Shown here piece by piece: positions 35,261 to 52,367 of a DNA stretch of 64,000 bases (position 1 is its first letter; every line of letters begins with the position of its first letter). This DNA comes from Candidatus Omnitrophota bacterium (GTDB lineage Bacteria > Omnitrophota > Omnitrophia > Omnitrophales > Aquincolibacteriaceae), in the NCBI GenBank assembly GCA_049324575.1, contig JBMONI010000024.1, forward strand, positions 53,144 through 117,143, read 5' to 3'. The position numbers and the translations under genes were made by a program. A model generated the notes under the pieces. The model saw only the letters and a program-made list of their open reading frames with translations. It did not search any database and had not been told where the DNA came from.

Positions 35261-35338
35261 TGGCGTCCCTAACGGGATTTGAACCCGTGTCGCCAGAATG
35301 AAAATCTGGTGTCCTAGACCAAGCTAGACGATAGGGAC
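35261..35338 (-). tRNA. tRNA-Glu (anticodon UUC)
   Basis: Minus-strand sequence GTCCCTATCGTCTAGCTTGGTCTAGGACACCAGATTTTCATTCTGGCGACACGGGTTCAAATCCCGTTAGGGACGCCA. Cloverleaf with 7-bp acceptor stem, anticodon loop TTTTCAT (UUC), TPsiC arm GGGTTCAAATCCC, encoded CCA. Similar to bacterial tRNA-Glu. Confidence 0.9.
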
Positions 35339-35525: not shown

Positions 35526-38500
35526 TTAGGCTGCGGTCGAGATCAGAAGATCGATCCTGGCCCGTTCAAGGATCCCGAGGACCGCGTTGAATTCGCCCGG
35601 AGCGTCGGCTTCAGCATCGTGGACGGCGTAGGATTCTCCGGGCTGTGCCTCAAGAAGCGACCGCACGACGACCATCATATGGGCGGCAAGCCGCGATGGA
35701 GAACGGCCGGAAGAATACTTCCATACACGCGCAATTCCCGCGCGCCTTTCGACACGCCCCACGGAATCTTCATCCAGAAGGACCGCATGGGACCCCACCA
35801 GCCGTGTTTGCGGAAGCGAAGCCATCACACGGCGTTCCGCGTTATCCCCCACGACCTGAAATTGTCCCGGCGCCGGGACAATTCCCGCCTGTTGAGCTTT
35901 GGCAAGGATCCGCGCCTGATAAAAAGCCGCAAAGGCTGCATCATAACCCGTAAGGTTCAACCGAAGCTCCGCACGGGTCAGGACCACAGCCCCAAGCACG
36001 GCGGGCAAATATTCGGCAAGTTGATCGAGTTCGGCCCCACGGAGGAGCGGCAAGCGCACATGGGCCGTTCGCCCTTCTTCGCGAGGTTCCGCGACAGCAG
36101 AAGGTCGCGCCGATAGGAAACGCGAATCGGCCAGCCAAGGTTGAAGAAGATCCACTAATTCCGCGTTATCGACCGAGGCCGCCCCAGGCTCATCCGCAAG
36201 CAAGGCAAGGACCGCCCCCTCCCGCTCGTCCCCGGTCATTTCGAGAGGAAGAAGCACTCCAGGCGCAAAGTCCGTGATACGAACTTCCGCCCCTCCGGGG
36301 AAATCATTCCGCAAAACCGTTTTCCATTCCGAGGTCGAGGGGATCGAACGCACTTCCGCGCGCGGTCCCAGGACTTCATCATGCTCAATCCCGGTTTTGC
36401 CGAGAAGTTCTTTGATGTAGCCGACCATTTCTTCTTTGACCGATTCCGCCACAGGCTCTCCGCCCCTGTTGATGAAAAGCGTCAGGGTATCCGTCAAATA
36501 TCCCTTGCCGTAAAAGAGCCCGACAATATTGATCCCGAATTTCTCGAATAGCCCCTGGGTCGCAAGATAGACGAAATTCTCCCAGCGGGTCACCCGGATG
36601 TTGAGAACGCTTGTCGGAACCATGGCTTTTCCTGTCATGCCTTCCACTTCGAACTGCGTGTCACGGGCAAAAGTGGCTTCCGTCATCGGGCTGTTCCCGG
36701 AATCGACAAAACGCTCAAAGTGGCCCGAGTGCCCCTGTCCGGCAAAGATCTCGCGAAGGATCGCCGCATGAGTTCCGGGTTCGGATTCCGCCGCCAGGAG
36801 CCGGTTCAGATCCTCTTCCAGCGCCCTCTGTTCTTTACCGGAAATATCCTGACCGGCTTTCAGCCGGATCAAAAGCCTTTTGAAGACCATGGGACCGTAG
36901 GCACTGACCCGCGCGCTTTCGACCACGATGTCACGCGAAGCCAGAACCCCGGTCAAGCTCGCGAAAAGGCCGGGACGATCCCCCTTGAACCCGAAAATGA
37001 TCTCCCGGTAAGAATCCGGCAAGCCTTCGACCTTCGCCACCGAGATCTTGGCGGGCCGGGAAGCGATCTTGACATGCGCAAAAAACAAAAGCTGCTTCAG
37101 GACCGCGTCCTCGCTCAGACTGTGAACATATTCCGGACGGAAGTGCCCCAAATATTCCTTGATCAGTTCCCTGTAATTTTCCGGAGAAAAAAGCGCCTTC
37201 AGCGCCGTTTTTTCATCCTCGGACGCATGGCTTTGTCCCAAATACTCGTTCAAATACCGGACCCCCAAAGGAGTTCCGTCACGAACGAGAAGCAATTGCG
37301 CCTCAAGGTCCGGAATAAATGCCCTCGCCCATTCGAATCGAAGTTCCCGCACTTCGTCTTCAGCCGTCTGAAAAGCCACCGCCTCCAACCGCCCGGCGCT
37401 TAAAGCGTGGGACGCCGCCAGATAAGCCTTTTCCATCTGCGTGATCGAAAAACCGCCGTTATGCATCATCGCGGGCTCGATCTCCGCCGGGATCTCCGCG
37501 ATCTTGCGGACAGCGACCATTAAATAGAGCAGCTTGAGGTTCTCCGGAGTATCCCGATGGACCCGCGCAAGAAACTCCTCCGCGATCTTCTCCGCCCCGT
37601 TGGAAAGCAGATCGCGCATCGCGATCATTTCATTCGCCCCGTCGACCAGCGCAAGGATGGCCTCGCGCTCGGGATCGCTGAGCCGCGGAATATCGCTCAA
37701 ATACGCCCTCCGATCGAAAGCATCGAAATCGGCCAAAAAGATCGCAAAACGCAGGATGCGGCGCAGCGACGCATCCGCTACGACCTCCTCATAGATCTTC
37801 GGTAATTGATAGAGCTGGTAGCGGCTGGTGCTGAGGATATCGTTCAGGATCTGATACGCCCGGTTGACCATCATATCCGCGGAATAGAAATCATCCGGAT
37901 TCGGGAATCTGCCGCTCAATTTTTCGTAGCCCGGAGCCATGAGCCGCAGAAAAGTCGTCGTATGCTGATAACGCCAAAAGGTGTAATAAATAGCCTCCTC
38001 AAGGCTGAAAAGATCATACAGACCATTCGCCTGAAGTTCCTGCGCCGCGGCATGATGTCCCGCCATCAGCGAACGCGCCTTGGACAGAAGCATGAGCAGT
38101 TCCTGGCTGGGCCCGATATGGCGTTCGGTCGCGATCTGAAAAGCCGTTGCGATCCGTCCCGAAGATGCGGCGTACCGTTCGGCGCTCGTCACGGGCGAAG
38201 GATAAAGCTGATCGGCTTGGTCAAAAACAAAACCTGCTCTGGGAGAGAAACGGAAACCGATCCGGTTCCTGCTCACAAGATCCTCATTGACTCTACGTGA
38301 AGCGCCATAAACAGGCGCATACTGTAATTTCACGATCTCGGGGACCGCCCGGGTCACAAGGACAAAGACGTTATTGATGTGGTGATAATAGTCCCTAAAA
38401 AATTCCCGCGACAGACTCTCTTGCGAAATTTCCGTCGCCACGTCTCTTCCCAGCGCCGCATGAAACCTCCCGACGAATTCGAGGACTATTTCCGGGTAGA

Positions 38501-41500
38501 TCTTACGGCGCTTCGGATAATGTTCATTGAAGACCGCTTCGGCCCGGGAAAGAAAAAGATAGGATTCTTCCAGTTTAGCCGCGAGCGCCTCGTCGACGAG
38601 CGTACCCGGCGCGCCTCCGATCTCGAACCGAAGATAGCGCAACATTTCGGTCATATCGGCCTGCGTCACCTCGCGTCCCGCCGAAAGCCTGTCCCTTTCC
38701 TGCGGAACAAAGACCTGCAGAGTCTCTTTAAGAAAACGCAGATCTTCCATCGTTCCGATGCCGTTACGAGGATCCAGAAGCCGTGGCCGCAAAGACATCA
38801 TCGCGCCCTGCTCCTTATACCGCCCCTGAAATCTCGCCCAAGGCCCCAAAAAGTTCATGAACGGCGCCAGCAATCCGTTGACCGCACCCCGGACAAGGTC
38901 ATCGGTCACATCCGACAACGCTTCGTAGTACGGATCGGTCGACCGGAGTTCCGACCGGAAATTCTCCAGGATCCCCGCAGTAATACGGATCTCCGGAACA
39001 CGGTTGGCCGGAACGCCGACTGAGATCGACACTTTGGAGAACTTTTTTCGAAGGTATTGAAGGAAATCCAGGAAAGCCGGATCCGAGGCAAGGGCTCCGC
39101 AAAAACAAAGATCTTTGGGCCGGTCCAAGGGATGCTGGACGTTATAATCATCCTCGGTCTGAGTCCAATCGATGATGCCGCGAAGAAGGTCCGGCCGCAG
39201 CTGGCCAAACTGATTTTCAGAGCCCGGATCATCCCGCGTGATCTCGATCTCATCTCCTTCTTCCTCCTCCCCCCTGACCAGAGAACTCAAATGCCCCGAC
39301 CATATGGACTCTTCATAGTCATTCGTCCCAAAGCTGAAAAATTGCGCGAAAGGATGCCGGACGATCGCCCGCCGATTCGCCACGGCCTCCCGTAACTCGA
39401 TCATGGCTCCATACTCGATCGTACTGCCCAGAGCCTGAGCCTCGACCGGGCGTCCTTCGGGCCCGCTCTCGATGAATTCCTTGGCGATCTCCTGGGCTTC
39501 CCGGTGCACTTCTTCGAGATAATCCAGATCGTATTCGTTCGCGACCATGGGAAAAAGAATCTGAACCAAAGGATGTTCTTTACCGAATTTTTCCGTATGC
39601 AGAATGATCGAGGCCATTTGCAAAGCAAGCAATTTGCGCCCCATCGGGGTCCGGTAGAACTGAAGTCCGGAAAGGTCCCGGGTCCGCTTGTCGAACCGGT
39701 TCAGGATTTTTCCGATAAATTTCGGACTCACAGACCGCAGGTTCGACAATTCTGTCCGGATCGCGGCCTCTTCCTTCCCTTGAAAGATCGGGATCCCAAG
39801 ATCAACACGGATATGGCGGACAAGCGGCATAAGGTCCGAAGAACCCGGATCGCGGAAAACCGCCTCCAATCGCTTTTCGACGTCTTCCCGGATCCCGTTC
39901 CAATACCCTTGGCGGTCCAGGGACTTCCCCGATTCACGAAGGATCTCGACCTGCTTATCCGACTCCAGATCGAAGGTCCGAAAAACGACCGTTTTTCCGT
40001 TCAACACCCGGTTCTGAAGGATCGGTTCATATTCGTAAAGCATCAGCTGCAGGATCTCCGAAACGGAAGACGCAGAGGCCTGAAGCTCGCCATCCTGGAT
40101 CACGGCTTCCCGTATGCAACCCAGGATCTTTTTGAGAAGCTCATGGCTCATAAATTCCGTACGGATCAGGGCGATCCCATCCGACATATTCTTTTCGTCG
40201 ATCGGATCACGCGGAGTCATATTCGCCCGGACCTTCATCGTCACCGGCAAGCGGATCTCCTTACCGTACATCACCGCCCTCGCCTTATCCAAAGCCTGCT
40301 TCCGGGCGACCTCCGGCATTCTTTCAGGCGTAGGATGCACATAAAGAACCGCGCTCTTCCGCTCGTCGGATTCGATCACGATCGGGTCCCCGACCTGAAT
40401 GCGGCCAACTTGCTCGACCACCTTTTCGTCAGCCCCGTTCAACAGGACCAGCACCGGTCGATTCGGCAAGCCCTGCGCGATGAGAACTCCGTGGGAATTA
40501 TGCGTTGCCTTCTTGAAAGCGATCCCCTCGATCCGGCTCCCGATCCGGTCCCACAACTCCTGCAGTTCGGGCCCCGCCACTTCACCGTCGATCAGGAGGA
40601 TGAACCGATCCTCCTGCTGGCCCTCCAGGATCTCGGCATAATAACCTTCCCGCATATCTACGATCTTTTTTTCCATTCCTTTTTCGATCGCCACGTCGAT
40701 CTTTTCGATCGCTTCGTTGAGGAATACATAAAGATCATATTTCGTATCCAGCTCTTTTTGCATAAACTCATCCACTTTTTCGTCCATGGCCTTCATCCCC
40801 GCCACCGCTCCCAGGACCCCTAAATATTCACGGTACATCGTGGCAGCGAAATGCTCGTAAAGGAATTGTGTCACCGAAATATTGCGAAAGGTCATCTGGC
40901 TCTTGGTTTGTTGCCCGCTTTCTTTGCTGAGGTCCAGCAAGTCCGTCATCGCCTGAATAAAGGCTTGGTAATAAGAACGGTCCGGATCGATCGCCGCAAG
41001 GTTCTGCATCGAGCGATGGGCTTTGTGCACCTCCGCCTGTTTGGCCTTGTAAAGTTGCGCGATTTCTCGCCCGCCGGGTTGATCTTCCCCGCCTAACTCG
41101 CTCAGGCGTCTGCGCAAATACAAAGCCTCTTTTCCCGAAGCCTTCTTTTTTGCCTTCCAGCCTTCGCGGACCTTCTTGAGCCGTTCGAGCCGAGCGACCT
41201 CAGCGGTCTCGCGATGCAAAAGAGCGTCAACGACTTCGGCCGCTTTTTGGATCTGGTCTTCAGCCGCTTCATGGATCCCCGCTTCGGCGCTTTCCACGAC
41301 CGGACGCACCGACAAAAGATGCTCCACCGATCGATCCGCCAATACCAAAGAAGCCTTCGTATCCTCAAGCAGTTGCAACGTATCCGCAGAAGGTTCGCCG
41401 AACTCTTCCCGCTCTCTTGCGGCCTTCTCCTTCGCCGCTCCGGCAGCCCGCCGGCAACGATCCCGCATGCTGTCCGCTCGTTCGAGAGAGAGATGGATCA

Positions 41501-44183
41501 GGCGCCGGATCCGCGACCGCTGGCCCGAAAATTGGGCCGGATCCGATGCGATCTCTCCGATCTCGCGCCGCCATTCGGAAAATTCGCTCTCCCGCTTGTC
41601 GAAATATTGCCGATCCCATTCATCCCCATATCCCCGGACCTGGAGAACAAGCTCTCCAAGCGTTTCCATGGCGGACCCCAGCGAGGCCATAAGACTCTCC
41701 GCTTGTTCACGCCCCCATCCTTCCGTCTTTTCTTCGACCAGGACAGCGTAAAAACGCGTCTTGAGATAAATAAAACGCAGAAGGTCCTTGACCATTTCTT
41801 CGGGAACCCCGGTAAGATCGATCTCACTGAAATATTTCCGGTTTTTTTCAGCTGCCGGATGTTCGAGGGCGTCTTGAAATGTAAAATTGGGCGTGATCAG
41901 CCCGGCTGTTTCTCCTTGCGCAACCGCTTCCTCAAGATCCGAAATGATCTTCGCCGAAACATGCCGGATCCAGCGAACAACACGCTCACTATCGGCCCCT
42001 TGATGTTTCATCTGGAAAAAGCGGATCACTTCAGGAATGACGTTATGATAAAAGATCTCGATCTCAAGCGGGAGCTTCGAAGGCTCCACCGGCGTTTCGA
42101 TAATACGGAACTTCGTCTTTGGCATGGTGATCATCTTTCCGTAAGCGGCCTGTTGAGCGATGATCCCGACCCCGCCTTCGATCACCATCTCCTGAGGCGG
42201 CGCCGAGCGAAGTTCGGCGCGGATAGGCCGCATCCGGATCTCACGCGCCGGCTGGAGGATCCGGTACCCGCGCGGATCGGCCGAAGTCAGGGTCTGCGAG
42301 AGGTTCGAGGTCTTCCGGGACACAACTTTTCCGGGAATTTTGGAGGAAAATCCAGGAGCCGCGTCGGACCGTTCCGTCCCGGCACCGTCGGCACGGCGCG
42401 TAGTTTTAAAAACCGGATGGGTGTGAAGGATCTCTTGGATCCGCGTTTGAAGATCACCCGCTGAAGCCCTTTTTTGCTTTTCGAGGGCCGGAAGCGCGAC
42501 CTCAACCAGCTCGCGATAAAAAAGTTTTTGCTGTTTCGTGTCGAGAAAAGCCGGGGCCGGGAGGCCGCGCGGCGCTTCGGCGTTCTTCCCCGTCATGACT
42601 TTTTCATAAGAAGCCGCATGACCTGGGTCTCCCGCGACGGGAAGAACGACCGCATGAGGGATCTTCCACTCACCCAGGATCTCTCCGATCCCCGTGCGGT
42701 GAAAGCCGCCCGTAACCAATACGGCAACACCGGCGCGGCCTTTGGGACCAGCCCGCTCAAGCAGCCGGGCCGCCAGGGCCCGGTCTCGTGCTTTGGCGGC
42801 ACGGTAGAAATCCTCAGCGGTCCGGATCCATACCGCCAGATCCCCGACGGAAGCGTTCTTTTGCATCGATCGGGCGAGCCAGCGATGGATCAAGCCACGG
42901 CGCATTTGATAGATCTCATGTTCCCGTTCGGTCAGTCCAGTCGAAAGAAGCTTTTCGAGAAGTTCCGCGTCCTTGATCCGGCGAAGGAAGCGCTCTTCCG
43001 GATAGCTTTTCGTGAGGGTGCGGATCAGGGCCTCTTCGAGCTTTGCGATCTCTTCAAAAAAAGCTTCGGCGTCGATCTCCTCGAGATAGACAGGGGTCAT
43101 CAGGCTCCCTACGAAATGCGGAAAGGCTTCAAGCCGAAGGCCCCGGCCAACCGCCATTCGATGGAGTTGCCGGACCCAGACCCTTCTGAGCTTGGGCGCC
43201 GGACCGGCCCCGGGAACTTCCGGGCGTTCCGGATTCAAGACCGGATCCACGCGAGCCAGGATCTCAAGATCCGCCTTGGACGCATTTTTTGACAAACGTT
43301 CCTTCAGCTGTTTCCACTCGTCACGGGCCCTGCCCTCCTCCGCATCCTTGGCGATCTGCTGGATCTTTTGGAACCGGGCCCTATGCGGAAAGCGGAATTG
43401 CTCGACGGGATCCGCCAGATCGATCTTGAGGAGGCGTGAAACTTTTTCCGAAAGAAGCTTTAAATAGGCCGCGAGGTCCGAAGATCCGCCGGCGCCGAGG
43501 GCCAAAGAGTATTTCCCCTCTTTCAGGCGTCGTCTTTCCCGAAGGAAATCCCGGAGTTCCGGATCCAAGATCCGCGAGCCTTCCCGATCGAGTTCATCAC
43601 GGATCGCGGACAGGGCCCGATGGATATCCTCCCTGGCATCCGCCAAAGCGAGATACGCGCCATAATTCGCACGATAAAGGCGCGGGGCTTCAAGGCCTTC
43701 GATCCTGACCGTTCTCCGCCCGCCGGTGTCCCTGTAATGGAGCCAGCCAAAAAGCTCGGCCCCGCTCAGTTCCCCTTTTTCGAGAAGATCGGCCACCACC
43801 GCGTCCCCGGCTTCGGGATATCCGGGAACCAGATCGTAATATTCCGGATGGAGCGGCCCCACGGCGCCTTCGACGCCAATGACCAGGGACGGATATTCCC
43901 GGTGTAAAACCTTCAGGATCTCCGCGATATGGACCTGCGCCGAGGGATTCGCATGGGCATCATTGATATGGATCACGAAAGGTCCGCCAGAGGAGGCCGG
44001 TTCCGGCAACGGCTGGACCTCGACGCTTCCGAATTCCCGCGGAAGTGAAAGCAGCTTCGTGAGAACTTCCGCATAGGGTCCCGCCGGGGATACGCCCCTT
44101 TCCGCCGCAGTCGCTAAAGGCGAAATTACGAAGGTCAGAAGCGTAAAAAATGCCGTTATTTTTTTTAGGTTCCGGTTTTGCAT
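35526..44183 (-). CDS. giant multidomain protein (~2886 aa): signal peptide/anchor + Tiki/TraB/erythromycin-esterase-like domain + Enzyme-I/PPDK-like PEP-utilizing phosphotransfer module + GlnD-like ACT regulatory region
   Basis: ORF track 35526..44240; start set at MQNRNLKKITAFFTLLTFVISPLATAAE (signal peptide or N-terminal anchor). N-terminal domain has FVIHINDAHAN … VLVTGGFHRTGI, resembling the GxxH / GAGH motif pair of TraB/PrgY/Tiki/ChaN. Central module: phosphohistidine-like KKATHNSHGVLIAQGLPNRPVLV, then TIM-barrel motifs GIALIRTEF…, …FSFGTNDYEE…, …CFCGALASDP…, collinear with PEP-utilizers mobile + C domains of EI/PPDK/PEP synthase. C-terminal third: …LLYLMVAVRKIA… and the ACT-like …IIFGFKGDRPGLFASLTGVLASRDIVVESARVSA…, as in GlnD. 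Long helical linkers between modules. Confidence 0.85.
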   Translation of the reverse strand: MQNRNLKKITAFFTLLTFVISPLATAAERGVSPAGPYAEVLTKLLSLPREFGSVEVQPLPEPASSGGPFVIHINDAHANPSAQVHIAEILKVLHREYPSLVIGVEGAVGPLHPEYYDLVPGYPEAGDAVVADLLEKGELSGAELFGWLHYRDTGGRRTVRIEGLEAPRLYRANYGAYLALADAREDIHRALSAIRDELDREGSRILDPELRDFLRERRRLKEGKYSLALGAGGSSDLAAYLKLLSEKVSRLLKIDLADPVEQFRFPHRARFQKIQQIAKDAEEGRARDEWKQLKERLSKNASKADLEILARVDPVLNPERPEVPGAGPAPKLRRVWVRQLHRMAVGRGLRLEAFPHFVGSLMTPVYLEEIDAEAFFEEIAKLEEALIRTLTKSYPEERFLRRIKDAELLEKLLSTGLTEREHEIYQMRRGLIHRWLARSMQKNASVGDLAVWIRTAEDFYRAAKARDRALAARLLERAGPKGRAGVAVLVTGGFHRTGIGEILGEWKIPHAVVLPVAGDPGHAASYEKVMTGKNAEAPRGLPAPAFLDTKQQKLFYRELVEVALPALEKQKRASAGDLQTRIQEILHTHPVFKTTRRADGAGTERSDAAPGFSSKIPGKVVSRKTSNLSQTLTSADPRGYRILQPAREIRMRPIRAELRSAPPQEMVIEGGVGIIAQQAAYGKMITMPKTKFRIIETPVEPSKLPLEIEIFYHNVIPEVIRFFQMKHQGADSERVVRWIRHVSAKIISDLEEAVAQGETAGLITPNFTFQDALEHPAAEKNRKYFSEIDLTGVPEEMVKDLLRFIYLKTRFYAVLVEEKTEGWGREQAESLMASLGSAMETLGELVLQVRGYGDEWDRQYFDKRESEFSEWRREIGEIASDPAQFSGQRSRIRRLIHLSLERADSMRDRCRRAAGAAKEKAAREREEFGEPSADTLQLLEDTKASLVLADRSVEHLLSVRPVVESAEAGIHEAAEDQIQKAAEVVDALLHRETAEVARLERLKKVREGWKAKKKASGKEALYLRRRLSELGGEDQPGGREIAQLYKAKQAEVHKAHRSMQNLAAIDPDRSYYQAFIQAMTDLLDLSKESGQQTKSQMTFRNISVTQFLYEHFAATMYREYLGVLGAVAGMKAMDEKVDEFMQKELDTKYDLYVFLNEAIEKIDVAIEKGMEKKIVDMREGYYAEILEGQQEDRFILLIDGEVAGPELQELWDRIGSRIEGIAFKKATHNSHGVLIAQGLPNRPVLVLLNGADEKVVEQVGRIQVGDPIVIESDERKSAVLYVHPTPERMPEVARKQALDKARAVMYGKEIRLPVTMKVRANMTPRDPIDEKNMSDGIALIRTEFMSHELLKKILGCIREAVIQDGELQASASSVSEILQLMLYEYEPILQNRVLNGKTVVFRTFDLESDKQVEILRESGKSLDRQGYWNGIREDVEKRLEAVFRDPGSSDLMPLVRHIRVDLGIPIFQGKEEAAIRTELSNLRSVSPKFIGKILNRFDKRTRDLSGLQFYRTPMGRKLLALQMASIILHTEKFGKEHPLVQILFPMVANEYDLDYLEEVHREAQEIAKEFIESGPEGRPVEAQALGSTIEYGAMIELREAVANRRAIVRHPFAQFFSFGTNDYEESIWSGHLSSLVRGEEEEGDEIEITRDDPGSENQFGQLRPDLLRGIIDWTQTEDDYNVQHPLDRPKDLCFCGALASDPAFLDFLQYLRKKFSKVSISVGVPANRVPEIRITAGILENFRSELRSTDPYYEALSDVTDDLVRGAVNGLLAPFMNFLGPWARFQGRYKEQGAMMSLRPRLLDPRNGIGTMEDLRFLKETLQVFVPQERDRLSAGREVTQADMTEMLRYLRFEIGGAPGTLVDEALAAKLEESYLFLSRAEAVFNEHYPKRRKIYPEIVLEFVGRFHAALGRDVATEISQESLSREFFRDYYHHINNVFVLVTRAVPEIVKLQYAPVYGASRRVNEDLVSRNRIGFRFSPRAGFVFDQADQLYPSPVTSAERYAASSGRIATAFQIATERHIGPSQELLMLLSKARSLMAGHHAAAQELQANGLYDLFSLEEAIYYTFWRYQHTTTFLRLMAPGYEKLSGRFPNPDDFYSADMMVNRAYQILNDILSTSRYQLYQLPKIYEEVVADASLRRILRFAIFLADFDAFDRRAYLSDIPRLSDPEREAILALVDGANEMIAMRDLLSNGAEKIAEEFLARVHRDTPENLKLLYLMVAVRKIAEIPAEIEPAMMHNGGFSITQMEKAYLAASHALSAGRLEAVAFQTAEDEVRELRFEWARAFIPDLEAQLLLVRDGTPLGVRYLNEYLGQSHASEDEKTALKALFSPENYRELIKEYLGHFRPEYVHSLSEDAVLKQLLFFAHVKIASRPAKISVAKVEGLPDSYREIIFGFKGDRPGLFASLTGVLASRDIVVESARVSAYGPMVFKRLLIRLKAGQDISGKEQRALEEDLNRLLAAESEPGTHAAILREIFAGQGHSGHFERFVDSGNSPMTEATFARDTQFEVEGMTGKAMVPTSVLNIRVTRWENFVYLATQGLFEKFGINIVGLFYGKGYLTDTLTLFINRGGEPVAESVKEEMVGYIKELLGKTGIEHDEVLGPRAEVRSIPSTSEWKTVLRNDFPGGAEVRITDFAPGVLLPLEMTGDEREGAVLALLADEPGAASVDNAELVDLLQPWLADSRFLSARPSAVAEPREEGRTAHVRLPLLRGAELDQLAEYLPAVLGAVVLTRAELRLNLTGYDAAFAAFYQARILAKAQQAGIVPAPGQFQVVGDNAERRVMASLPQTRLVGSHAVLLDEDSVGRVERRAGIARVWKYSSGRSPSRLAAHMMVVVRSLLEAQPGESYAVHDAEADAPGEFNAVLGILERARIDLLISTAA

Positions 44184-44347: not shown

Positions 44348-44372
44348 TAACTCATTATTTTAAAATGAGTTA
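44348..44372. promoter_or_regulatory. 25-bp AT-rich near-perfect palindrome TAACTCATTATTTTAAAATGAGTTA (9-bp arms), candidate operator ~165 nt upstream of the giant gene
   Basis: Read directly, in the 307-bp intergenic region between the REC-GGDEF-EAL stop and the 2886-aa gene start. Too AT-rich to be a strong intrinsic terminator. Confidence 0.3.
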
Positions 44373-44490: not shown

Positions 44491-46140
44491 TCAGCCGGGT
44501 TCTCCCCACAAAAATCCTTGCCCGTAGGGAACCCCGATAGATCTCAGGATCTTAAGGTCTTCCGGGCTCTCGATGCCCTCGGCAATGATCTTGGCATGGA
44601 AACTCCTTAAAACGCTCAAAAGCCGGGCGAGCATTTCACGCCGGTCAGGGTCCTGGCTGATATTCTGCACGAACTTCTTGTCGATCTTGATCACATCGGG
44701 CTGAAGCACGATCAAGCTTTCAAGGCTGCTGCGCCCGAACCCTACGCCATCGATCGCCAACAGGATCTTCTGGGCCTTGAGATTTTCGACCGCAGGGACC
44801 AGCAACGAGGGATCGCCCAGGATCTGCTGCTCGCTGATCTCGACGCACCAGGACCGGCCCGGAGAAGTTGTGGGGAAAAATCGCGCAAATTTCTCCGGCG
44901 AGAATTTCGACAGCGTGGACGGAAAAAGATTAATATGCTTGTAGGCTTCCTGAGAAACCCGGGAAGCGGCCGCGACGGACTTTTCGAGACAGCGCTCATC
45001 CACCCTCGAAAGGATGTTATTCTCCTTGCTAAGATGAAAAAAATCGTTCGGCATTTCAAAACCCAGGATGCTGGACCTGGAAAGGAACTCATACCCATCG
45101 ACCCGGCCCGTCGCCAGCTCACAGATCGGCTGCTTGACCGCACGCAAACAATTCCCTTCCCAAAGCATCTCAACGACATGGTCCGGGGGCATCTCCCCGG
45201 GGCCGCCGGTGCTGACCCGGTTCTTTCCGAGCCGCTTGCTCCGGGCCAAGGCTTCATGCGTTTCCTCCAGAAGCCGATCAACGGTTGCGATCTTTCGATC
45301 AGCGCTTACACTTGCAAAACTCGCGGTCACCCGCACCGAGATATCGTTGGAAATGGGGATGGTGGCCTGAGCGATCGCGCGACGCACCCTCTCGGAAAAG
45401 TGCAACCCTTCGGCCAGGCGGGTATTCGGCAAGAGGAGAATAAACTCATCGCCTCCCACGCGAGCCACGTAATCGGATTCGCGGACCGTCCCCCTCATGA
45501 TCTTGGCCACCCGTTGCAGCACCGCATCCCCGGCCGCATGGCCGTGCGCGTCATTGATCGATTTGAAATCGTCCAAGTCAATGAGGATCACAGAAAGATT
45601 CGTCCCCTCGCGGCCGGAAAGCCGGATCTCACGGGACAGCATGCGCTGGAGGCCTCGGCGGTTCAGAAGTCTCGTGAGCGGATCGAGGATCGATAGCTTT
45701 TCGAGATGCATGTTGGCTTCTTCCATCTGCTTTTTCTGGCGATTCCGCTCCACGGCATGCGCGACCGTGCGAAAGATCGTTTTCCCGACGATCTCCCCTT
45801 TGACGACATAATCCTGGGCCCCCTGCCGGACGGCTTCCAGCGCGACATGCTCGTCATCGTTCCCGCTGAGGATCACACAAGGAATGTCCGGATGGGCGGC
45901 GGCCAGCCACTCGAAAGTCCCGATCCCCTGACTGTCCGGCAAGCCAAGGTCGAGGAGCACCGCATCGAAGGCCCCTTCCTGAAGCGCTCTATGAGCTTCC
46001 TCCAGGGAATGGACATGGGTCATCTCGTAGGAAATGGGATCATCCAACTTCGAAGCAAGTTGGAGGAACCGCACAAAATCGGGGTCGTCATCGACCAGAA
46101 GTATTTTGATGGTCACCGGCTGGACATCATAGGCTAGCAT
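44491..46140 (-). CDS. response-regulator receiver + GGDEF + EAL protein (c-di-GMP turnover)
   Basis: REC (KILLVDDDPDFVRF…AVLLDLGLPDSQG). GGDEF (…LTRLLNRRGLQ…RVGGDEFILLL). EAL (QPICELATGRVDGYEFLSR…, …KIDKKFV…). GAGGTG RBS before the internal ATG (MLAYDVQ). Confidence 0.9.
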   Translation of the reverse strand: MLAYDVQPVTIKILLVDDDPDFVRFLQLASKLDDPISYEMTHVHSLEEAHRALQEGAFDAVLLDLGLPDSQGIGTFEWLAAAHPDIPCVILSGNDDEHVALEAVRQGAQDYVVKGEIVGKTIFRTVAHAVERNRQKKQMEEANMHLEKLSILDPLTRLLNRRGLQRMLSREIRLSGREGTNLSVILIDLDDFKSINDAHGHAAGDAVLQRVAKIMRGTVRESDYVARVGGDEFILLLPNTRLAEGLHFSERVRRAIAQATIPISNDISVRVTASFASVSADRKIATVDRLLEETHEALARSKRLGKNRVSTGGPGEMPPDHVVEMLWEGNCLRAVKQPICELATGRVDGYEFLSRSSILGFEMPNDFFHLSKENNILSRVDERCLEKSVAAASRVSQEAYKHINLFPSTLSKFSPEKFARFFPTTSPGRSWCVEISEQQILGDPSLLVPAVENLKAQKILLAIDGVGFGRSSLESLIVLQPDVIKIDKKFVQNISQDPDRREMLARLLSVLRSFHAKIIAEGIESPEDLKILRSIGVPYGQGFLWGEPG

Positions 46141-46316
46141 CACGCACCTCTTTTCTATTGCAGAAGTGCACAGGATCAAGACTCAGGGACACCCACAAAC
46201 CCAAAACACCCTTTTCCAAGACCTACGTTTCGGCAGCTTCTTTCCACGGCTTCAGAAAGCTCACGCCCCTTTTGACAATGTCGTCACCGTCAGGCAGCGC
46301 ATGATGAATCCTGCTT

Positions 46317-46634
46317 TCACAAAAGAGCATTGATCTTTGCCGCACACAAAAAATCATTATCCGAAAGACCCCCGATCGAATGCGTCGAATACCGCACCTG
46401 GCAGGTTTTATAACCGAACTCGATCTCCGGGTGATGATTTTCCCGGTTTGCGATCCATGCGACCGCGTTCACAAAGGGAACCGTCTCGGCATAATTTTTG
46501 AAAAAGAACGTCCGGACGATCTCCCCATGCTCATGACGCCATCCGGGGATTTGCTCGAGCAGAACACGGATCTCGGCCTCGCTCTTCGGTTTCACGCCGC
46601 CTTCACAAGGAACACACTTTTGGGTCAGGTCCAT
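46317..46634 (-). CDS. pterin-4-alpha-carbinolamine dehydratase (PCD/DCoH family)
   Basis: 105 aa. …FKNYAETVPFVNAVAWIANRENHHPEIEFGYKTCQVRYSTHSIGGLSDNDF… is collinear with the PCD [EDKH]-x3-H-H-P motif region. Confidence 0.85.
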   Translation of the reverse strand: MDLTQKCVPCEGGVKPKSEAEIRVLLEQIPGWRHEHGEIVRTFFFKNYAETVPFVNAVAWIANRENHHPEIEFGYKTCQVRYSTHSIGGLSDNDFLCAAKINALL

Positions 46635-46709
46635 TGGAGCCTCCGTTTCAACATTTTACGGATCTTTTCCCCTTCGATAAGACCGGCAGCCCTGTCCGCT
46701 CGGCCGCGC

Positions 46710-47141
46710 TCAGTTCCACTGCGTCTTGGGAAGCAGTTTTTCGATCGCGTGAATGACATCCAAGGGATGGAACGGCTTTCGAAGAAAGGCGTTGATCCCG
46801 CATATCTCCATGAGCGGTAATTTGTCACCCTTAAAAAAACCGCTGACGGCAATGATCGGGATATTGCCCCCCTCCGGGAGATCCCGGATCTCATGAGCGA
46901 CCTCAAATCCGCTTTTTTCCGGCATTTTGATATCCAGCAGGACCAGTTCCGGACGGATCTTACGCACGACATCCAAGACCCTCAGCGGGTCCTGGACCGC
47001 AACCGTCTGGTACCCGCTTAACGCCAGCAGTTCGCTGAGCTCTTGAAGGAAAATTTCGTCGTCATCGACCACCACGACGGCCTTCGTCCTCAATTCTCGA
47101 TCGTCCAAAGTTTCCATCCCATTCACGCTTTCTTTATTCAT
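46710..47141 (-). CDS. single-domain CheY-like response regulator (receiver only), paralog A
   Basis: VVVVDDDEIFLQELSELLALSGYQTVAV…LVLLDIKMPEKSGFEV…IIAVSGF… ~60 % identical over the receiver core to the 52908..53309 product. Confidence 0.85.
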   Translation of the reverse strand: MNKESVNGMETLDDRELRTKAVVVVDDDEIFLQELSELLALSGYQTVAVQDPLRVLDVVRKIRPELVLLDIKMPEKSGFEVAHEIRDLPEGGNIPIIAVSGFFKGDKLPLMEICGINAFLRKPFHPLDVIHAIEKLLPKTQWN

Positions 47142-47576
47142 AGGGTTTCTAAGTCTTTTTGCCGCTTCGCTTCTTTATCCGAACCCCAGTTTTTCCGTTC
47201 CTGCATCATTCGCCACCGCATCCTTTTGCCGTCCTTCTTCTCCCGAAAGCATAACGTCATTTGTCTTTTCGGAATTTCATCGTTTCGCCGCAGCACGGTT
47301 GTTTTTTCCTTGAAGCTTCTCCGCATTTCCCGCATTCATAAAGCGATGTTTTTTTGCCTTTGCCTTGCCGAAGATGCTTCGCCATAACCCCGACCTCCTT
47401 TTCCTGCCCTTATCATATACCGAAGCCTCTCAAGGCCCATGGGCTGATTCCGGGATTTGCTGACTTTTTTCCCATCCGCGGAAACCCTTGAAAACAAAGC
47501 CCCGATGGGCCTCGGAAGGGATAGAGGGAAGCATTCTGGGCTTTCCGATGGACGAAGGATAAGGTTTGAAAAACGG

Positions 47577-47984
47577 TCAGGACCCGCCCAGCAATTTCCT
47601 GACCGTCGTCAGAAACTCTTCGACCGAGTAGGATTTACTGATGACCGCGTCCGCCCTCTGCAGATCGAAGGCCAACGGACTGTCGCCGGGTTCCATTTGT
47701 TGGGTCAGAAAACGGTGCACGACAGGATCCGCGCTGAAAATAGCGACCTTGGGCACTGCCGTTTCGGGAGAATAGCTCTTCATGTTCTTCAAAAGTTCGA
47801 GTCCGCTGAAATGAGGCACTTTGATATCCAGAAGGACCAGGTCATAATTGCCCTTGGCGATCATGGCCTTTCCGCGGATCCCGTCGAACGCCATGTCAAC
47901 CCCATATCCCTCCGCGGCAAGGGCTTCCGCCAATTCTTCGCACAAAACTTCATCATCATCCATCACGAGGACTCTCTTTTTCAT
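47577..47984 (-). CDS. single-domain response regulator receiver, cognate partner of the downstream multi-PAS kinase
   Basis: MKKRVLVMDDDEVLCEELAEALAAEGYGVDMAFDG…LVLLDIKVPHFSGLEL. Its ATG overlaps the kinase stop (ATGA). Track ORF 47577..48095 trimmed to the internal start. Confidence 0.85.
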   Translation of the reverse strand: MKKRVLVMDDDEVLCEELAEALAAEGYGVDMAFDGIRGKAMIAKGNYDLVLLDIKVPHFSGLELLKNMKSYSPETAVPKVAIFSADPVVHRFLTQQMEPGDSPLAFDLQRADAVISKSYSVEEFLTTVRKLLGGS

Positions 47985-50900
47985 GGCGGTCCGCTCTCCC
48001 CAAGGACCGGCAAAACGACCGTGATCGTCGTGCCCTTCCCTTCTTCGCTCGCCACGTCGATACGGCCCCCGTGATTCGCCACGATCTGTTGGCAAACCGT
48101 CAGGCCCAGCCCTGTCCCCTTGGTCTTGGTCGTGAAAAACGGCTCATGGATCTTGGAAAGATTTTCTCGGCTGATCCCGCAGCCGTTGTCCTCGAACCGG
48201 ACGGCAACCTCGCGGCCTTCATTCTCATACCCGGCTCCGACCACGATCCTTCCGTTCTTATTCGAAACCGCATCCACGGCATTGATCAAAATATTGTGGC
48301 AGACTTCTTTGACTTGGAAAGGGTCGAACTTGAACACTTTGCCGCGGATGTTTTCATAGTTCTTCACCCATTCAATCGCGTGTTCCCCCGCCCCGTGCTT
48401 CACCGCCTCGATACATTCCTCCAAAAGATCAAAAAGATCCGCCTCTTCCCAAACGGGCTTCCGGATGCGGGAATAAAACAAGAGGTTATTGATGATCTGA
48501 TCCGACTCCGCCACTTTTTTCTCGATGTGGATAAGATGCTTCTCGAGAAGCGGACCGGGGGCTTTTTGCTTGATGTTATAGGATGCGATACGGATCGCCC
48601 CAAGCGGCGTCCGCAATTCATGCGCCACGGTCGCGGCCAGGGCGCCAATGTCGGAAAGCCGTTTAGCTCTCTCAAGCTCGGTCTGGGCGCGGAACAACTC
48701 GTCGGTCCTTTCCTGGACCAGTTTTTCAAAGGTTTCCTTGTCCCGTTTCAGGATCTCTTCGGCTTTCTTCCGGTCCGTGATATCGATACAAATACCGGTC
48801 ATACGCTTTGGCTGTCCATGGTCATCGTAGAGGGTATTGCCCATTGCACTGATCCACCGCACTTCTCCGCCCGGTAAAACGATCCTATATTCATTCTGAA
48901 GCGGAATGCGGTCGCGAATAGCTTGATCGATCTTTGCTTCGGCCGCGGCACGGTCCTCGGGATGGAGCGCTTTTTTCCAGACCTCAAAAGAGCTCTCCCG
49001 GGAGGACGGATCCAGCCCAAAAAGAAAAAAGAACTCCGGCGACCAGGTGAGTTCCCCGGTCTTCAAGTCCCAATCCCAGATCCCCGCTCGGGCGGCCTGC
49101 TGCGCAAGGACCAGCCTTTCGTGAGCTTGACGCAGCGCTTCCTCCGCATGCTTTCGGTCGGTGATGTCCTGGGTGATGCCGAATCCGCCGGTGAATTTTC
49201 CGTGCTCATCGAATTCCAGATAGGCTTTCTCACGCACCCACTTGACGTGGCCGGAAACCACGATCCGGTGTTCGACCTCATAGGGCTTGCCGGTCAGTCC
49301 TGCCTTCCACTCGCGATCCACGAATTCACGGTCCTCGGGATGAACGCATTCCATAAAGGTTTCATAACTCATCGGAGCGCCCAGCGGGACGCCGAAAATG
49401 CGATGGTTTTCCTCCGACCACGTCAGAACATTGCGCCGCATATCCAGACGCCAGCTCCCCACATGCGCGACCGCCTGCGCATGGCTCAGGTCCTGCTGGC
49501 TTTTCCAGAGCGCTTCTTCGGCACGCTTGATCTCGGTAATATCCACGCTGAAACCGATGATCCCGATCATTTCGCCCTTTTCATTCACATAAGGCACTTT
49601 GTTGGTGCTCACGATCTTTCTTTCCCCTCTTGCCTCCATCGCTTCGACGATCCCGTATTTCGGCTGACCGGAGGCCAACACCGCACGATCGTCCTGCCAA
49701 TAGGCCTCCGCTTGCTCTTTCGGATAAAGGTCGAAAACGGACCGGCCCTCCAGTTGCTGTTTGGGCAACCCCATCATCTCTTCAAACTTCTTGTTCGTCC
49801 GGATAAAGCGGTTTTCTTTGTCCTTATAAAAGATCATCGCAGGCACGGAATCGAGGATCGTCTGAAGTTCGGCTTTCTTACTTTCGGCCTGGGCAGTCCG
49901 CTCCCGGACCAGGTCTTCCAAATGCGCACGATGTTCGGCTAATTCCGCCTCCGCCCTTTTACGATCCGTAATATCAATCCCTATTTCAAGCACCAATCGG
50001 GCGCCGTCGGTGTCGGTAAAAGGAAGCGCGTGCACCTCATAATCGCGTCCGTCCGGCCCGGTCCATTCCCCGAAATAAGGCCGGCCGGAGCGGAGCGTCT
50101 GGAAGATCTCGCAATTTTCGCAGCGGTCCCTCTGGTTGAAGATACACTCGTAGCATCGCCGTCCATGATCTTTTCCGAAGTGCTCGCGGAAGAATTTATT
50201 GGCGAAAGACACTTCCTTGCAGCCTTCCGACAGGAGCACCACATAGACCGGAAGCGTTTCCAGAACCTCGAAGAGCCGCTTCCGCTCAGCGATCGCCGCC
50301 GCTGAAAACTTTTTCAGTTTTCCGGACATTTGATCGAAAGCCCGGGAAAGCTGACCGATCTCATCGTTCGACGAGGACCCGATCTGATATTCCCAATTCC
50401 CGTTTCCAATGATCTCCGTGCCGCGGGTAAGACGCTGAAGCGGCTTCGAGATCGATCGCATCAGGGAAAGCGCCAAAAAACCGCTCAGCGCGATCACGAC
50501 CACAAGAAAAACGGCCACCTGATTTCGTAACCGGCGGATATCCGCAAAGGCTTCCCGGCGATCGATCTTGGCCACCAGGCCCCAATCGAGCGTCGGGATA
50601 TGGCGCCATGCCGCCACCACTTCCCGGCCACGGTAATCGATGTCGGCACCAACGCCTCTCGGCTCCTGTATGGCTTTCTGGATAGGGCCCCCAAGCGCAT
50701 CCCCGAGTCGGATACGCCTTTCCAAGGCTGCGCGGGGGTCATGACGAAGGGGGTTTAAAAAGATCACCTGATCCCCGAGCTTTTTCCCGATCAAAGTCTC
50801 TCCGGTCTTTCCCAGGCCGGTCACATCCTGGATCATTCGGTAAAAGGGCGCGAGATCCGCCTCAAAAACGATCCACCCGATCGGCAAACCGTCCGGATCT

Positions 50901-51439
50901 AAAAGCGGCGCCGTTGCCCGGACCGCGAGATGTTGGCGGGAAGGTTCATGCACCAACACATCGGAAATAAAAGCCCCTTCGTCCTGACCTTCGTGGATCT
51001 TCCGCTGACGTTCCGCGAGTTCTTTCAGAAAGTCTTCTTCGAAATGACGGGGATGGCTCGCATAGATCGGATCGCCGTCAAGGTCGAGGAGAATAATGGC
51101 GGATAACCGCCAGACCCGGGTCGCTTTTTGCAGGATCTCGTCGAGTATTTTCGTGGCCACCGCAGTCTCTGAAGCGGACGGTTCCCCGGCAAAGCGCGCG
51201 CAAATGGAAAAGTTCTTTCGGACCGAATGGTCGGCCTGAATGATCCCGAGGTCCGCTTTAATCGACGCAAAATACGCTTCGATATTTTCCGCTTTCAAGT
51301 CCGCAATGCTTTGAAGATGGGCAAAAACCTCGCCGCGCATCGACCTTTCATAATTACGAAAGGTCAGGAAGGTAATGAAAACGAGAGGAAGAAGGCAACA
51401 TCCCAGGAATAAGAAGATCAGCTTCGAGCGTATTGACAT
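47981..51439 (-). CDS. multi-sensor histidine kinase (TM + extracytoplasmic sensor + HAMP + four or more PAS/PAC + HisKA + HATPase_c)
   Basis: N-terminal TM MSIRSKLIFLFLGCCLLPLVFITFLTF. Second TM ~300 then HAMP. Repeated PAS/PAC units (…RFIRTNKKFEEMMG…, …HPEDREFVDREW…, …HPEDRAAAEAKI…). H-box ATVAHELRTPLGAIR. N/G boxes (HNILINAVDA…, DNGCGISRENLSKIHEPFFTTK, GTGLGLTVCQ). Confidence 0.9.
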   Translation of the reverse strand: MSIRSKLIFLFLGCCLLPLVFITFLTFRNYERSMRGEVFAHLQSIADLKAENIEAYFASIKADLGIIQADHSVRKNFSICARFAGEPSASETAVATKILDEILQKATRVWRLSAIILLDLDGDPIYASHPRHFEEDFLKELAERQRKIHEGQDEGAFISDVLVHEPSRQHLAVRATAPLLDPDGLPIGWIVFEADLAPFYRMIQDVTGLGKTGETLIGKKLGDQVIFLNPLRHDPRAALERRIRLGDALGGPIQKAIQEPRGVGADIDYRGREVVAAWRHIPTLDWGLVAKIDRREAFADIRRLRNQVAVFLVVVIALSGFLALSLMRSISKPLQRLTRGTEIIGNGNWEYQIGSSSNDEIGQLSRAFDQMSGKLKKFSAAAIAERKRLFEVLETLPVYVVLLSEGCKEVSFANKFFREHFGKDHGRRCYECIFNQRDRCENCEIFQTLRSGRPYFGEWTGPDGRDYEVHALPFTDTDGARLVLEIGIDITDRKRAEAELAEHRAHLEDLVRERTAQAESKKAELQTILDSVPAMIFYKDKENRFIRTNKKFEEMMGLPKQQLEGRSVFDLYPKEQAEAYWQDDRAVLASGQPKYGIVEAMEARGERKIVSTNKVPYVNEKGEMIGIIGFSVDITEIKRAEEALWKSQQDLSHAQAVAHVGSWRLDMRRNVLTWSEENHRIFGVPLGAPMSYETFMECVHPEDREFVDREWKAGLTGKPYEVEHRIVVSGHVKWVREKAYLEFDEHGKFTGGFGITQDITDRKHAEEALRQAHERLVLAQQAARAGIWDWDLKTGELTWSPEFFFLFGLDPSSRESSFEVWKKALHPEDRAAAEAKIDQAIRDRIPLQNEYRIVLPGGEVRWISAMGNTLYDDHGQPKRMTGICIDITDRKKAEEILKRDKETFEKLVQERTDELFRAQTELERAKRLSDIGALAATVAHELRTPLGAIRIASYNIKQKAPGPLLEKHLIHIEKKVAESDQIINNLLFYSRIRKPVWEEADLFDLLEECIEAVKHGAGEHAIEWVKNYENIRGKVFKFDPFQVKEVCHNILINAVDAVSNKNGRIVVGAGYENEGREVAVRFEDNGCGISRENLSKIHEPFFTTKTKGTGLGLTVCQQIVANHGGRIDVASEEGKGTTITVVLPVLGESGPP

Positions 51440-51578
51440 CGCAATGCGGTCCTTACTTGCGAGCGCGAACCCGCCTTTTTTTAGTCATGTTCATAACGGT
51501 ATTTCTTGCCCCCCCTTATCCGACACGAGACCGAACCGTCCAGCAGCAGTCCTTCGGATAAAGAAAAATCGAAAAATA

Positions 51579-52367
51579 TCAGCGTCTTCTTTCGGAGCGC
51601 TTTTGTTTGCCTTTTCCTTTTCGAGCCGCCGGACGAGAAGCCAAGGAGCGTTTTCCCGTCTTCTTCTGGCGAAATTCCGTGGGGGTCTTCTTGGTAAAAC
51701 GTTTGAATTGACGGATAAAGGATTCCGGGTTTTCATAGCCGAGCTTGTAGGCGATCTGGCTCACATTCCCGTCACTGCCGCGGGCCAAAAGGGTTTTTGC
51801 TTTTTCGATCTTGAGTTTGATCCGATACTGCACATAGCTTTCCCCGGTCTCTTCTTTAAAGAGCCGGCTAAGGTACTTCGGGCTCAAGCAGACGGCTTGC
51901 GCCGCGTCTTCCAGATTGGTTTTTTTGAAACAGTTCCGTTCAATAAAGCGTTTTACTTTCTCGATCTTACCGTGCGTGCTCGCCGTATCGATATCGCTCC
52001 CCGCATGTTGCTTTTCCAGGATCGTTTCCACCATGGCCCGGATCTTTTTGGGATCGGCCGGTTTCTCGATATAGTCGTCGGCATGGCCTTTAAGCGCTTC
52101 GATCGCCGTATCTTTGTCGCTGTAACCGGTCATGATGATGATCCCCAGGGCCGGATCGGTTCGTTTGATCTCACGAAGGACATCGATCCCCCCGCGGCGG
52201 GGCATCCGGACATCCAAGATGACCAGATCAATGGCATTGGCTTTGCGGATCATATCCACGGCTTCCTGTCCATTGGCGGCTTCCAGAACGCGATATTCGG
52301 AAAAGAGATCTTTCATCTCTTCCCTGAATTCCTTATCATCATCGACGACCAACAGAGTTTCCGTCAT
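51579..52367 (-). CDS. response regulator with AraC-type HTH output domain
   Basis: REC (MTETLLVVDDDKEFREEM…LVILDVRMPRRGG…IIMTGY). C-terminal HTH_AraC (…AQAVCLSPKYLSRLFKEETGESYVQYRIKLKIEKAKTLL…IAYKLGYENPESFIRQFKRFTKKTPTEFR). Confidence 0.85.
   Translation of the reverse strand: MTETLLVVDDDKEFREEMKDLFSEYRVLEAANGQEAVDMIRKANAIDLVILDVRMPRRGGIDVLREIKRTDPALGIIIMTGYSDKDTAIEALKGHADDYIEKPADPKKIRAMVETILEKQHAGSDIDTASTHGKIEKVKRFIERNCFKKTNLEDAAQAVCLSPKYLSRLFKEETGESYVQYRIKLKIEKAKTLLARGSDGNVSQIAYKLGYENPESFIRQFKRFTKKTPTEFRQKKTGKRSLASRPAARKGKGKQKRSERRR

Follow-up and report, generated by a model that had tools for sequence, protein, structure and literature searches.

A 2,885-residue Omnitrophota protein that joins an Enzyme I-like module to a GlnD-like, ACT-bearing unit within a family of modular giant proteins

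We analysed a 64,000-nucleotide stretch of DNA from a Candidatus Omnitrophota bacterium (assembly GCA_049324575.1, contig JBMONI010000024.1, positions 53,144 to 117,143; hereafter the window), which carries one very long gene at 35526-44183 of its minus strand. All coordinates refer to the window, and all features of this gene lie on the same strand. The gene starts with ATG and encodes 2,885 amino acids (aa) plus a stop in a single uninterrupted open reading frame (ORF). Two in-frame ATG codons, at 44183-44181 and 44216-44214, lie 11 codons apart. The upstream one would add 11 residues and has a Shine-Dalgarno-like GAGGGG 4 nt ahead of it, and the reading frame is open further upstream, as far as a TTG at 44240. 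The signal peptide described below is retained whichever of the two ATG starts is used.

An ORF of this kind invites the explanation that it is an artefact or a decaying gene, such as an assembly chimaera or a frameshift fusion of separate genes, as its length is unusual and such domain combinations are often products of misassembly. An earlier note on this DNA, made from the sequence alone, had reported a single giant ORF and had itself named an assembly chimaera among the findings that would refute its claim. An independent Logan assembly encodes a 2,816-aa copy at 99.96% identity (BLASTP; database entry P0001), the 4,288-aa relative P0002, although only 30% identical, keeps the same order along the query from residue 9 to residue 2605 (2,600 aa), and the GC content is even along the gene (0.53-0.60, with no break in composition). 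These observations exclude a chimaera or frameshift fusion and show the ORF to be real. Every module also retains conserved catalytic residues, and both ends of the protein bear the head and tail of its family. We therefore regard the artefact explanation as effectively refuted and its remaining probability as negligible.

The protein opens with a Sec-type signal peptide or signal anchor at residues 1-27 (44103-44183; MQNRNLKK / ITAFFTLLTFVISPLATA / AE). Its sole hydrophobic segment spans residues 9-27, with R4, K7 and K8 before it and an ATA-AE site after it, in line with the secretion signal or membrane anchor that had been noted in the first ~30 residues. The signature recurs across the family: 180 of 188 complete family N-termini have a hydrophobic N-terminal segment, and in these 180 proteins the n-region has a mean net charge of +2.9 and the next 15 residues one of -0.9. 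Such an N-terminus is characteristic of Sec signal peptides and of N-in signal anchors. The positive n-region, the AxA site and the single hydrophobic segment together predict export of the whole chain; a 'membrane-tethered' protein, as the earlier note had it, with its body in the cytoplasm is thus not what the sequence predicts. A class III (prepilin) signal was considered and rejected, as the G-F-T-L-x-E-type motif is absent.

Behind the signal lies a head module (residues ~46-600; 42384-44048). An AlphaFold2 model based on an alignment of 25 relatives (predicted local distance difference test (pLDDT) 83.7, predicted template modelling score 0.77) contains an alpha/beta core with a parallel sheet, formed by residues 52-165 and 486-515 and split by a helical insert of ~310 aa (residues 167-478). 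A fold search assigned the head to the TIKI/ChaN/erythromycin-esterase fold, with RRSP and HopBA1 among the matches. An invariant His follows strand 1 and a Glu follows strand 2, and these are joined by an Arg and by a G-G-F-H after the last strand; H77, E105 and R466 are conserved in 190 of 190 relatives and H495 in 189 of 190. Members of the TIKI superfamily use a catalytic set of 2His/2Glu plus Arg (PMC6254334), to which the four residues correspond in the model, the mapping to RRSP and Bcr135 being by position in the fold rather than by superposition. Given the intact His/Glu/Arg/His set, the head is probably an active hydrolase, of either peptides or esters.

Sequence profiles placed the head less readily than its fold did. 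Pfam superfamily membership was not recovered, as Cofac_haem_bdg, whose cut-off is 27.7 bits, scored 14.6-18.6 bits and matched no more than 5 of the 25 relatives at all; the query head matched ChaN at E 0.034, and a sequence-profile search of solved structures gave no meaningful match. The TraB/Tiki/erythromycin-esterase-like domain with GGFH proposed earlier is therefore supported by the fold model and the conserved residues, and the Pfam check for TraB/Cofac_haem_bdg suggested alongside it left every superfamily model below threshold.

At the centre of the protein is an Enzyme I (EI)-like module (residues 1186-1780; 38844-40628), identified by a PF02896 (PEP-utilizers_C) match and by a profile match to E. 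coli EI. At 52.4 bits (E 5.7e-14) the PF02896 match lies well above its threshold of 22.8, and all of the motifs quoted in the earlier note for a phosphoenolpyruvate (PEP)-utilizing phosphotransfer module were found: ATHNSH at 1226-1231, GIALIRTEF at 1336-1344, FSFGTNDYEE at 1616-1625 and CFCGALASDP at 1693-1702. A profile built from nine relatives matched the E. coli EI structures 2kx9/2hwg with an E-value of 7e-31. The match covered residues 175-568 of EI, which comprise the phospho-His domain and the PEP-binding barrel. The profile was weaker on PEP synthase (6e-20) and on pyruvate phosphate dikinase (PPDK; 1.6e-10), indicating that the module is of the EI type and not the PPDK type. The swivel part of the profile aligned to EI residues 175-313 and placed an invariant His on EI His189. 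This is H1231 (40491-40493), in the phospho-His swivel domain, which is conserved in 26 of 26 relatives. The conservation of the ATHNSH His, which the earlier note had proposed to check, thus holds for the second His but not for the first, H1228, which is found in only 1 of 26. Of the PEP-binding residues, R1341, R1402, E1596, N1621/D1622 and R1650 are each shared by 24-26 of the 26 relatives, whereas C1695 is shared by 22. Judged by its sequence, the cassette has everything that EI would require for self-phosphorylation from PEP.

Upstream of the phospho-His domain, residues 660-1185 (40629-42206) form a mostly uncharacterised region with no Pfam or PDB sequence match, to which only P0002 aligns. 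In relatives the equivalent region is free of the inter-module motif described below and contiguous with the EI cassette, and it may be an enlarged form of the EI N-terminal helical subdomain. A regular-expression search and a PDB sequence search of residues 655-1300 found neither the canonical EI N-terminal strand nor the HPr-binding subdomain. The stretch MVIEGGVGIIAQQAAYGKMITM, which may resemble the EI N-terminus, is a lead only.

Directly behind the EI module follows a helical unit with a beta-hairpin that resembles GlnD, GlnE and CCA-adding enzymes (residues 1781-2375; 37059-38843) and that contains an HD-like part without metal ligands, and then two ACT domains (residues ~2378-2465 at 36789-37052 and ~2503-2595 at 36399-36677); with them, the GlnD-like region extends over residues 1781-2620. 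A seven-sequence profile matched the neck and HD region of the class-II nucleotidyltransferase 3wfp (E 7e-4) and the ACT domains of acetolactate synthase small subunits (E 0.012-0.57). NCBIfam models of GlnD matched weakly over the ACT region, scoring 20.5 and 19 bits where their equivalog cut-offs are 959 and 519. In the alignment with 3wfp, both the family consensus and the query sequence have lost the HD ligands (FYSADMM, FLADFD), with the first His replaced by Asp and HD by AD, and no nucleotidyltransferase G-S...D-x-D motif was recognised on reading the query sequence. Both observations suggest that the unit is regulatory rather than enzymatic, and it is probably a pseudo-enzyme serving as a regulator. 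The region that had been described as collinear with the C-terminal HD/ACT part of GlnD thus has the GlnD-like order and two ACT domains, but its HD part is degenerate.

The C-terminus is itself a conserved element (35529-36152): a module of ~190 aa (residues ~2678-2869), an amphipathic helix and the tail ...LLISTAA-COOH. Between 30 and 41 of 191 family proteins close with this module. The tail is far more widespread: the last residue is Ala in 140 of the 191, although Ala has a background frequency of only 9%, and 131 of these 140 have A, S or Q at position -2. The amphipathic helix is defined by hydrophobic residues at -5, -8, -11/-12 and -15, and the query ends ...RIDLLISTAA. Among closed family ORFs read stop to stop from genomic DNA, 29 of 37 end in x-Ala, and most exceptions are masked or apparently truncated. 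The shortest of the 191 proteins with both head and C-terminal module, P0090 (1,199 aa) and P0110 (1,106 aa), have ~350-400 residues between the two.

To place the protein in its family, we compared it with its homologues. In a full-length search, all 71 homologues share only the first 500-600 residues, and the cargo behind them otherwise differs. With a profile of the head, 10,062 clusters (50% identity) were matched at E<=1e-3, of which 6,968 also passed E<=1e-30. The best 150 matches listed, 487 to 7,839 aa long, all carry the head at their N-terminus. One peptide pattern, searched in one genome per GTDB species, gave 275 confirmed matches, several of them sharing one genome. Those with a named taxon come from metagenome-assembled genomes of Omnitrophota, and many others are titled 'uncultured bacterium'; the named homologues and loci are mostly Omnitrophota, with a few Elusimicrobia. 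Of these, 79 loci were retained, and in every one that includes the stop, the match stands at the start of an ORF of at least 792 aa.

The cargo behind the head includes metabolic enzymes (UDP-glucose dehydrogenase, TIM, glutamate dehydrogenase, phosphoglucomutase, hexokinase, GAPDH, transaldolase and glycosyltransferases) as well as signalling and other proteins (HPr, receiver domains, GGDEF, kinases, CsrA, sigma-70 region 4 and SecA). An EI module is present in 26 of the 191 family proteins, and in 21 of them the GlnD-like unit follows directly behind it. The architecture that the earlier note had taken to be undescribed is therefore recurrent, the cassette of EI and GlnD-like unit occurring in at least 21 of 191 proteins and the head in ~10,000 clusters. 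In relatives the cassette is followed by an HPr domain with its His (GLHLMPA) and then by a receiver domain; HPr-like domains lie at residues 2666-2765 of P0005 and, in two copies, at 2980-3187 of P0006. The query represents the shortest form, with head, cassette and C-terminal module. Searches with the C-terminal half and with the cassette alone were nearly empty and did not return even P0001, which we take to reflect a word-index limit and not absence; their single match, P0192, has an EI but none of the family modules.

Some family genes occur in pairs. Two lie within ~20 kb of each other in ten loci (L007, L008, L009, L018, L020, L040, L044, L063, L068 and L071) and are directly adjacent in at least some, for example L018 and L063, which suggests paralogue expansion by local duplication. 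The neighbours include dnaX in 15 of 79 loci (for example at 1494-3327 of L033), recR in 7 and an ABC transporter in 7; the dnaX/recR context suggests one orthologous member in a conserved housekeeping neighbourhood.

The modules of these proteins are separated by a five-residue motif, R-[SA]-E-[VLAIM]-R, which occurs 661 times in the 191 family proteins compared with 12.3 expected from shuffles, a 54-fold excess. At least one copy is present in 123 of the 191 proteins and at least three in 82. Its codons vary synonymously, which indicates selection on the peptide, and a nucleotide-level signal was rejected on the same ground. The first copy stands at a median of residue 693, just behind the head, and the median spacing is 290 aa. 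The motif avoids module interiors, with 9 copies inside four delimitable modules compared with 158 expected (p = 5e-64). In P0051 (2,345 aa), motifs at 1160 and 1437 flank a complete, highly conserved TIM domain (1172-1432; Pfam E 2.8e-75), 12 residues ahead of it and 5 behind; in P0037, a motif at 948 precedes a UDP-glucose dehydrogenase starting at 960; and in P0006, motifs at 3090 and 3187 each stand behind one of two HPr-like domains and so separate them.

The query carries four copies. Copy 1 (RAELR, residues 655-659; 42207-42221) lies in a low-complexity linker behind the head, and copy 3 (RAEVR, residues 2608-2612; 36348-36362) in a disordered linker behind the second ACT domain (pLDDT <50, model residues 826-840), so that the two bracket the cassette of residues ~660-2607. 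Copy 2 (RSELR, residues 1743-1747; 38943-38957) is near the end of the EI barrel and not conserved in relatives, and copy 4 (RAELR, residue 2737) falls inside the C-terminal module and is probably there by chance. No other credible gene in the window carries the motif. The motif and the C-terminal module with its tail, both absent from the earlier note, point to a precursor or polyprotein logic.

On this evidence we propose that the protein is a PEP-driven, ACT-gated phosphotransfer sensor within a modular precursor that is perhaps cut at the motifs, a reading whose chances we consider to be about even. The family frame consists of a Sec-type signal peptide, a head of ~570 aa, interchangeable cargo set between motifs and an amphipathic C-terminal helix ending x-[A/S/Q]-Ala-COOH, to which the subfamily of the query adds the 190-aa C-terminal module ahead of the helix. 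The cargo of the query is one cassette (residues ~660-2607), running from RAELR (655) to RAEVR (2608). The EI part would take phosphate from PEP onto His1231, and the degenerate GlnD-like unit and the two ACT domains would gate this phosphorylation on a small metabolite, much as a GAF domain gates EI in PtsP. Because relatives carry HPr and a receiver domain downstream in the chain, the phosphate would probably go on to an HPr-like acceptor, in this case encoded outside the query protein and the window. On the simplest reading the motifs would be processing or docking sites: the precursor would be recognised at both ends, and the head might be what releases the cassette. The identities of the domains, their conserved residues, the frame and the enrichment and placement of the motif are observed here; autophosphorylation from PEP, gating by the ACT domains, cutting at the motif and the side of the membrane on which the protein works are inferred. 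The best reading of the central cassette remains a PtsP-like, metabolite-gated phosphotransfer; of the membrane-tethered PtsP-like sensor put forward earlier, this part stands, but a tethered cytoplasmic body is not predicted.

Several observations weigh against this proposal. The PF00391 mobile-domain model does not match the query, and the EI barrel of the query and of P0002 contains a ~90-aa insert (residues ~1415-1502) that the seven further aligned sequences lack. The AlphaFold2 model of the GlnD-like unit is built on only 7 sequences. An HPr-like acceptor is absent from the query protein and from the 64-kb window. With respect to processing, 68 of the 191 family proteins have no motif, copy 2 lies within the EI segment without being conserved and copy 4 within the C-terminal module. 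The head might instead act as an esterase or, like ChaN, as a binding domain, and no conserved protease or secretion gene was found beside family genes in the 79 genomic loci. Finally, PEP is cytoplasmic, yet the N-terminus predicts export of the whole chain with no second hydrophobic segment. Such export is hard to reconcile with the use of PEP by the EI module, and likewise with cargo that needs cytoplasmic substrates. Two preprints (West-Roberts et al. 2023; Nielsen and Lui 2026) point out the same location paradox for larger Omnitrophota giants, and it leads us to retain two alternatives, one on each side of the membrane.

The first, which follows the membrane-tethered sensor of the earlier note, is a single-chain protein that is never processed, held by an inner-membrane anchor with its body in the cytoplasm, where it would draw on cytoplasmic PEP; the head and C-terminal module would be regulatory or serve as a scaffold, and the motif would be no more than a preferred linker. 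This would suit the cargo of the family, which is cytoplasmic in type throughout (EI, HPr, REC, TIM, GAPDH, UDP-glucose dehydrogenase, CsrA, sigma-70 region 4 and SecA) and requires PEP, ATP, NAD or UDP-sugars, and West-Roberts et al., for giant Omnitrophota proteins with glycolytic domains, likewise suspected an error in the predicted localisation. By the positive-inside rule and by its AxA-like site, the body is nevertheless placed outside the cytoplasm, given the opposite charges on the two sides of the hydrophobic segment in 180 proteins (+2.9 versus -0.9). The TIKI, ChaN and PrgY relatives of the head are typically extracytoplasmic as well. Moreover, a neutral linker would not hold a five-residue motif at 54-fold excess across proteins that are ~25% identical, and it leaves the C-terminal Ala of 140 of 191 proteins unexplained. 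We consider an anchored cytoplasmic sensor possible but rather unlikely.

The second alternative accepts export and carries it further, to a secreted effector precursor delivered to a host or prey, with modules freed by the head or by a host factor and the EI/ACT cassette disrupting PEP-dependent signalling of the host. Its basis is an analogy with MARTX toxins, multi-effector carriers that have among their delivered domains RRSP, a protease of the TIKI fold; RRSP and HopBA1 are both among the fold matches of the head, nearly all complete family N-termini (180 of 188) have the signal-peptide-like segment, and the modular cargo shows paralogue expansion with several copies per genome. The C-terminal amphipathic helix with its tail of small residues may also be akin to HlyA-type secretion signals; type I secretion substrates, however, normally lack Sec signal peptides. 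Omnitrophota have been inferred to be host-dependent or predatory and to have giant surface proteins (PMC10066038; preprints), which would also fit an effector. Against delivery, Pfam and PADLOC searches found no RTX repeats, cysteine protease domain, or toxin or defence signatures, no secretion genes are conserved beside family genes, whose neighbours are of the housekeeping type (dnaX, recR), and cargo such as TIM or UDP-glucose dehydrogenase is no obvious weapon. An effector role therefore seems improbable to us, and less probable than an anchored sensor.

A bolder version of the processing idea extends it to the whole family. Thousands of Omnitrophota polyproteins might be built on one grammar, with a signal peptide, a TIKI-fold protease head, R[SA]E[VLAIM]R cleavage sites and an x-[A/S/Q]-Ala tail recognised by a partner or by the head, and with modules (TIM, UDP-glucose dehydrogenase, HPr, receivers and the EI/ACT sensor) released outside the cytoplasm or inside a host. 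We offer this generalisation tentatively and think it more likely to fail than to hold.

The surroundings of the gene are consistent with its described position between a REC-GGDEF-EAL protein, encoded upstream at 44491-46179, and a tRNA-Glu gene downstream at 35261-35338; a Na+/H+ exchanger gene also lies downstream. The 307-bp intergenic region upstream contains a perfect 9-bp inverted repeat, TAACTCATT-N7-AATGAGTTA, at 44348-44372, in agreement with the palindromic element noted before. It was read directly from the sequence by eye, as a repeat search with a minimum length of 10 did not report a 9-bp palindrome. The repeat lies ~120 bp past the REC-GGDEF-EAL stop and ~165 bp ahead of the start of the giant gene and is not followed by a T-run, which makes it more likely to be an operator than a terminator.

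Elsewhere in the window, 44491-54839 is dense in signalling genes, encoding, besides the REC-GGDEF-EAL protein, a Cache-HAMP-PAS histidine kinase (1,152 aa), a REC-AraC regulator and a HAMP-HisKA_3 kinase; a pterin-4a-carbinolamine dehydratase is encoded there as well. A 1,597-aa ORF at 676-5469 (minus strand) has no Pfam match at E<=0.001, no head module and no R[SA]E[VLAIM]R. At 55965-59990 (minus strand), a probable surface protein of 1,341 aa is encoded that consists of bacterial Ig-like and fibronectin type III repeats. We found no second family member in the 64-kb window, and PADLOC defence models gave no match.

Compared with characterised proteins, the cassette is closest to EI of the PEP phosphotransferase system (PTS) and to PtsP (EI-Ntr). 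As in both, a phospho-His swivel domain is followed by a PEP-binding TIM barrel, and as in PTS EI, the His aligns with His189 and the set of Arg, Arg, Glu, Asn-Asp, Arg and Cys is present. PtsP likewise joins a small-molecule-sensing domain to EI, although its sensor is an N-terminal GAF domain, whereas that of the query is C-terminal and of the ACT/GlnD type. Unlike PTS EI, the query has the 90-aa barrel insert, has ~530 uncharacterised residues upstream where EI has a compact HPr-binding subdomain, and places its module inside a signal-peptide-bearing frame of 2,885 aa with no HPr or NPr partner seen in the protein or the window. With GlnD, GlnE and class-II CCA- and A-adding enzymes the query shares a helical neck and body of the nucleotidyltransferase type, an HD-like region and two ACT domains; it differs from GlnD in its lost HD metal ligands, in the lack of a recognised nucleotidyltransferase motif and in its scores (19-20 bits against cut-offs of 519-959).

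The head shares its alpha/beta core and its His, Glu, Arg and G-G-F-H with the TIKI/TraB/PrgY/ChaN/erythromycin-esterase superfamily, including the MARTX effector RRSP and HopBA1, and like TIKI and ChaN it is preceded by a signal peptide. It departs from that superfamily in its ~310-aa helical insert, in its sub-threshold Pfam scores and lack of a sequence match to solved structures, and in always heading proteins, which can reach at least 7,839 aa. MARTX toxins have RTX repeats, a cysteine protease domain and type I secretion genes, none of which the query has (Pfam scan; no conserved secretion neighbours).

Giant multi-enzyme, signal-peptide-bearing proteins of Omnitrophota are already known at the level of catalogues. 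West-Roberts et al. (2023 preprint) described 'Archaeovorins', giant Omnitrophota proteins, with a length criterion of 30,000 aa, and Nielsen and Lui (2026 preprint) described 'multi-enzyme metabolic clusters' of Omnitrophota with a criterion of at least 10,000 aa; proteolytic processing of such giant Omnitrophota proteins has already been suggested. The query resembles the giants of both in phylum, signal peptide and strings of metabolic and signalling enzyme domains, which in those giants include domains of the pyruvate phosphate dikinase type. Those proteins, however, are at least 10,000-30,000 aa long, have many transmembrane helices and are described at the level of Pfam content, whereas the query has 2,885 aa and one hydrophobic segment. 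We did not find the EI/GlnD-like cassette, the motif R[SA]E[VLAIM]R, the head or the tail mentioned in the two preprints; head, tail and motif were likewise not found in the searchable literature and are not covered by Pfam or NCBIfam. The grammar of head, motif and tail, the size of the family and the cassette of EI and GlnD-like (ACT) unit thus appear to be new.

If our proposal is correct, the cassette would represent a new mode of gating an EI-type phosphotransferase, in which an ACT/GlnD-like sensor couples PEP with the supply of amino acids or nitrogen. The only cultured model of this phylum is a single episymbiont. More important than the cassette is the frame: a head found in ~10,000 clusters, a C-terminal tail and a five-residue motif that flanks whole enzymes. 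The motif in particular provides a concrete, sequence-level prediction on whether the giant proteins of Omnitrophota act as single chains or are cut up, and this prediction can be checked in existing proteomic data and in simple cleavage assays.

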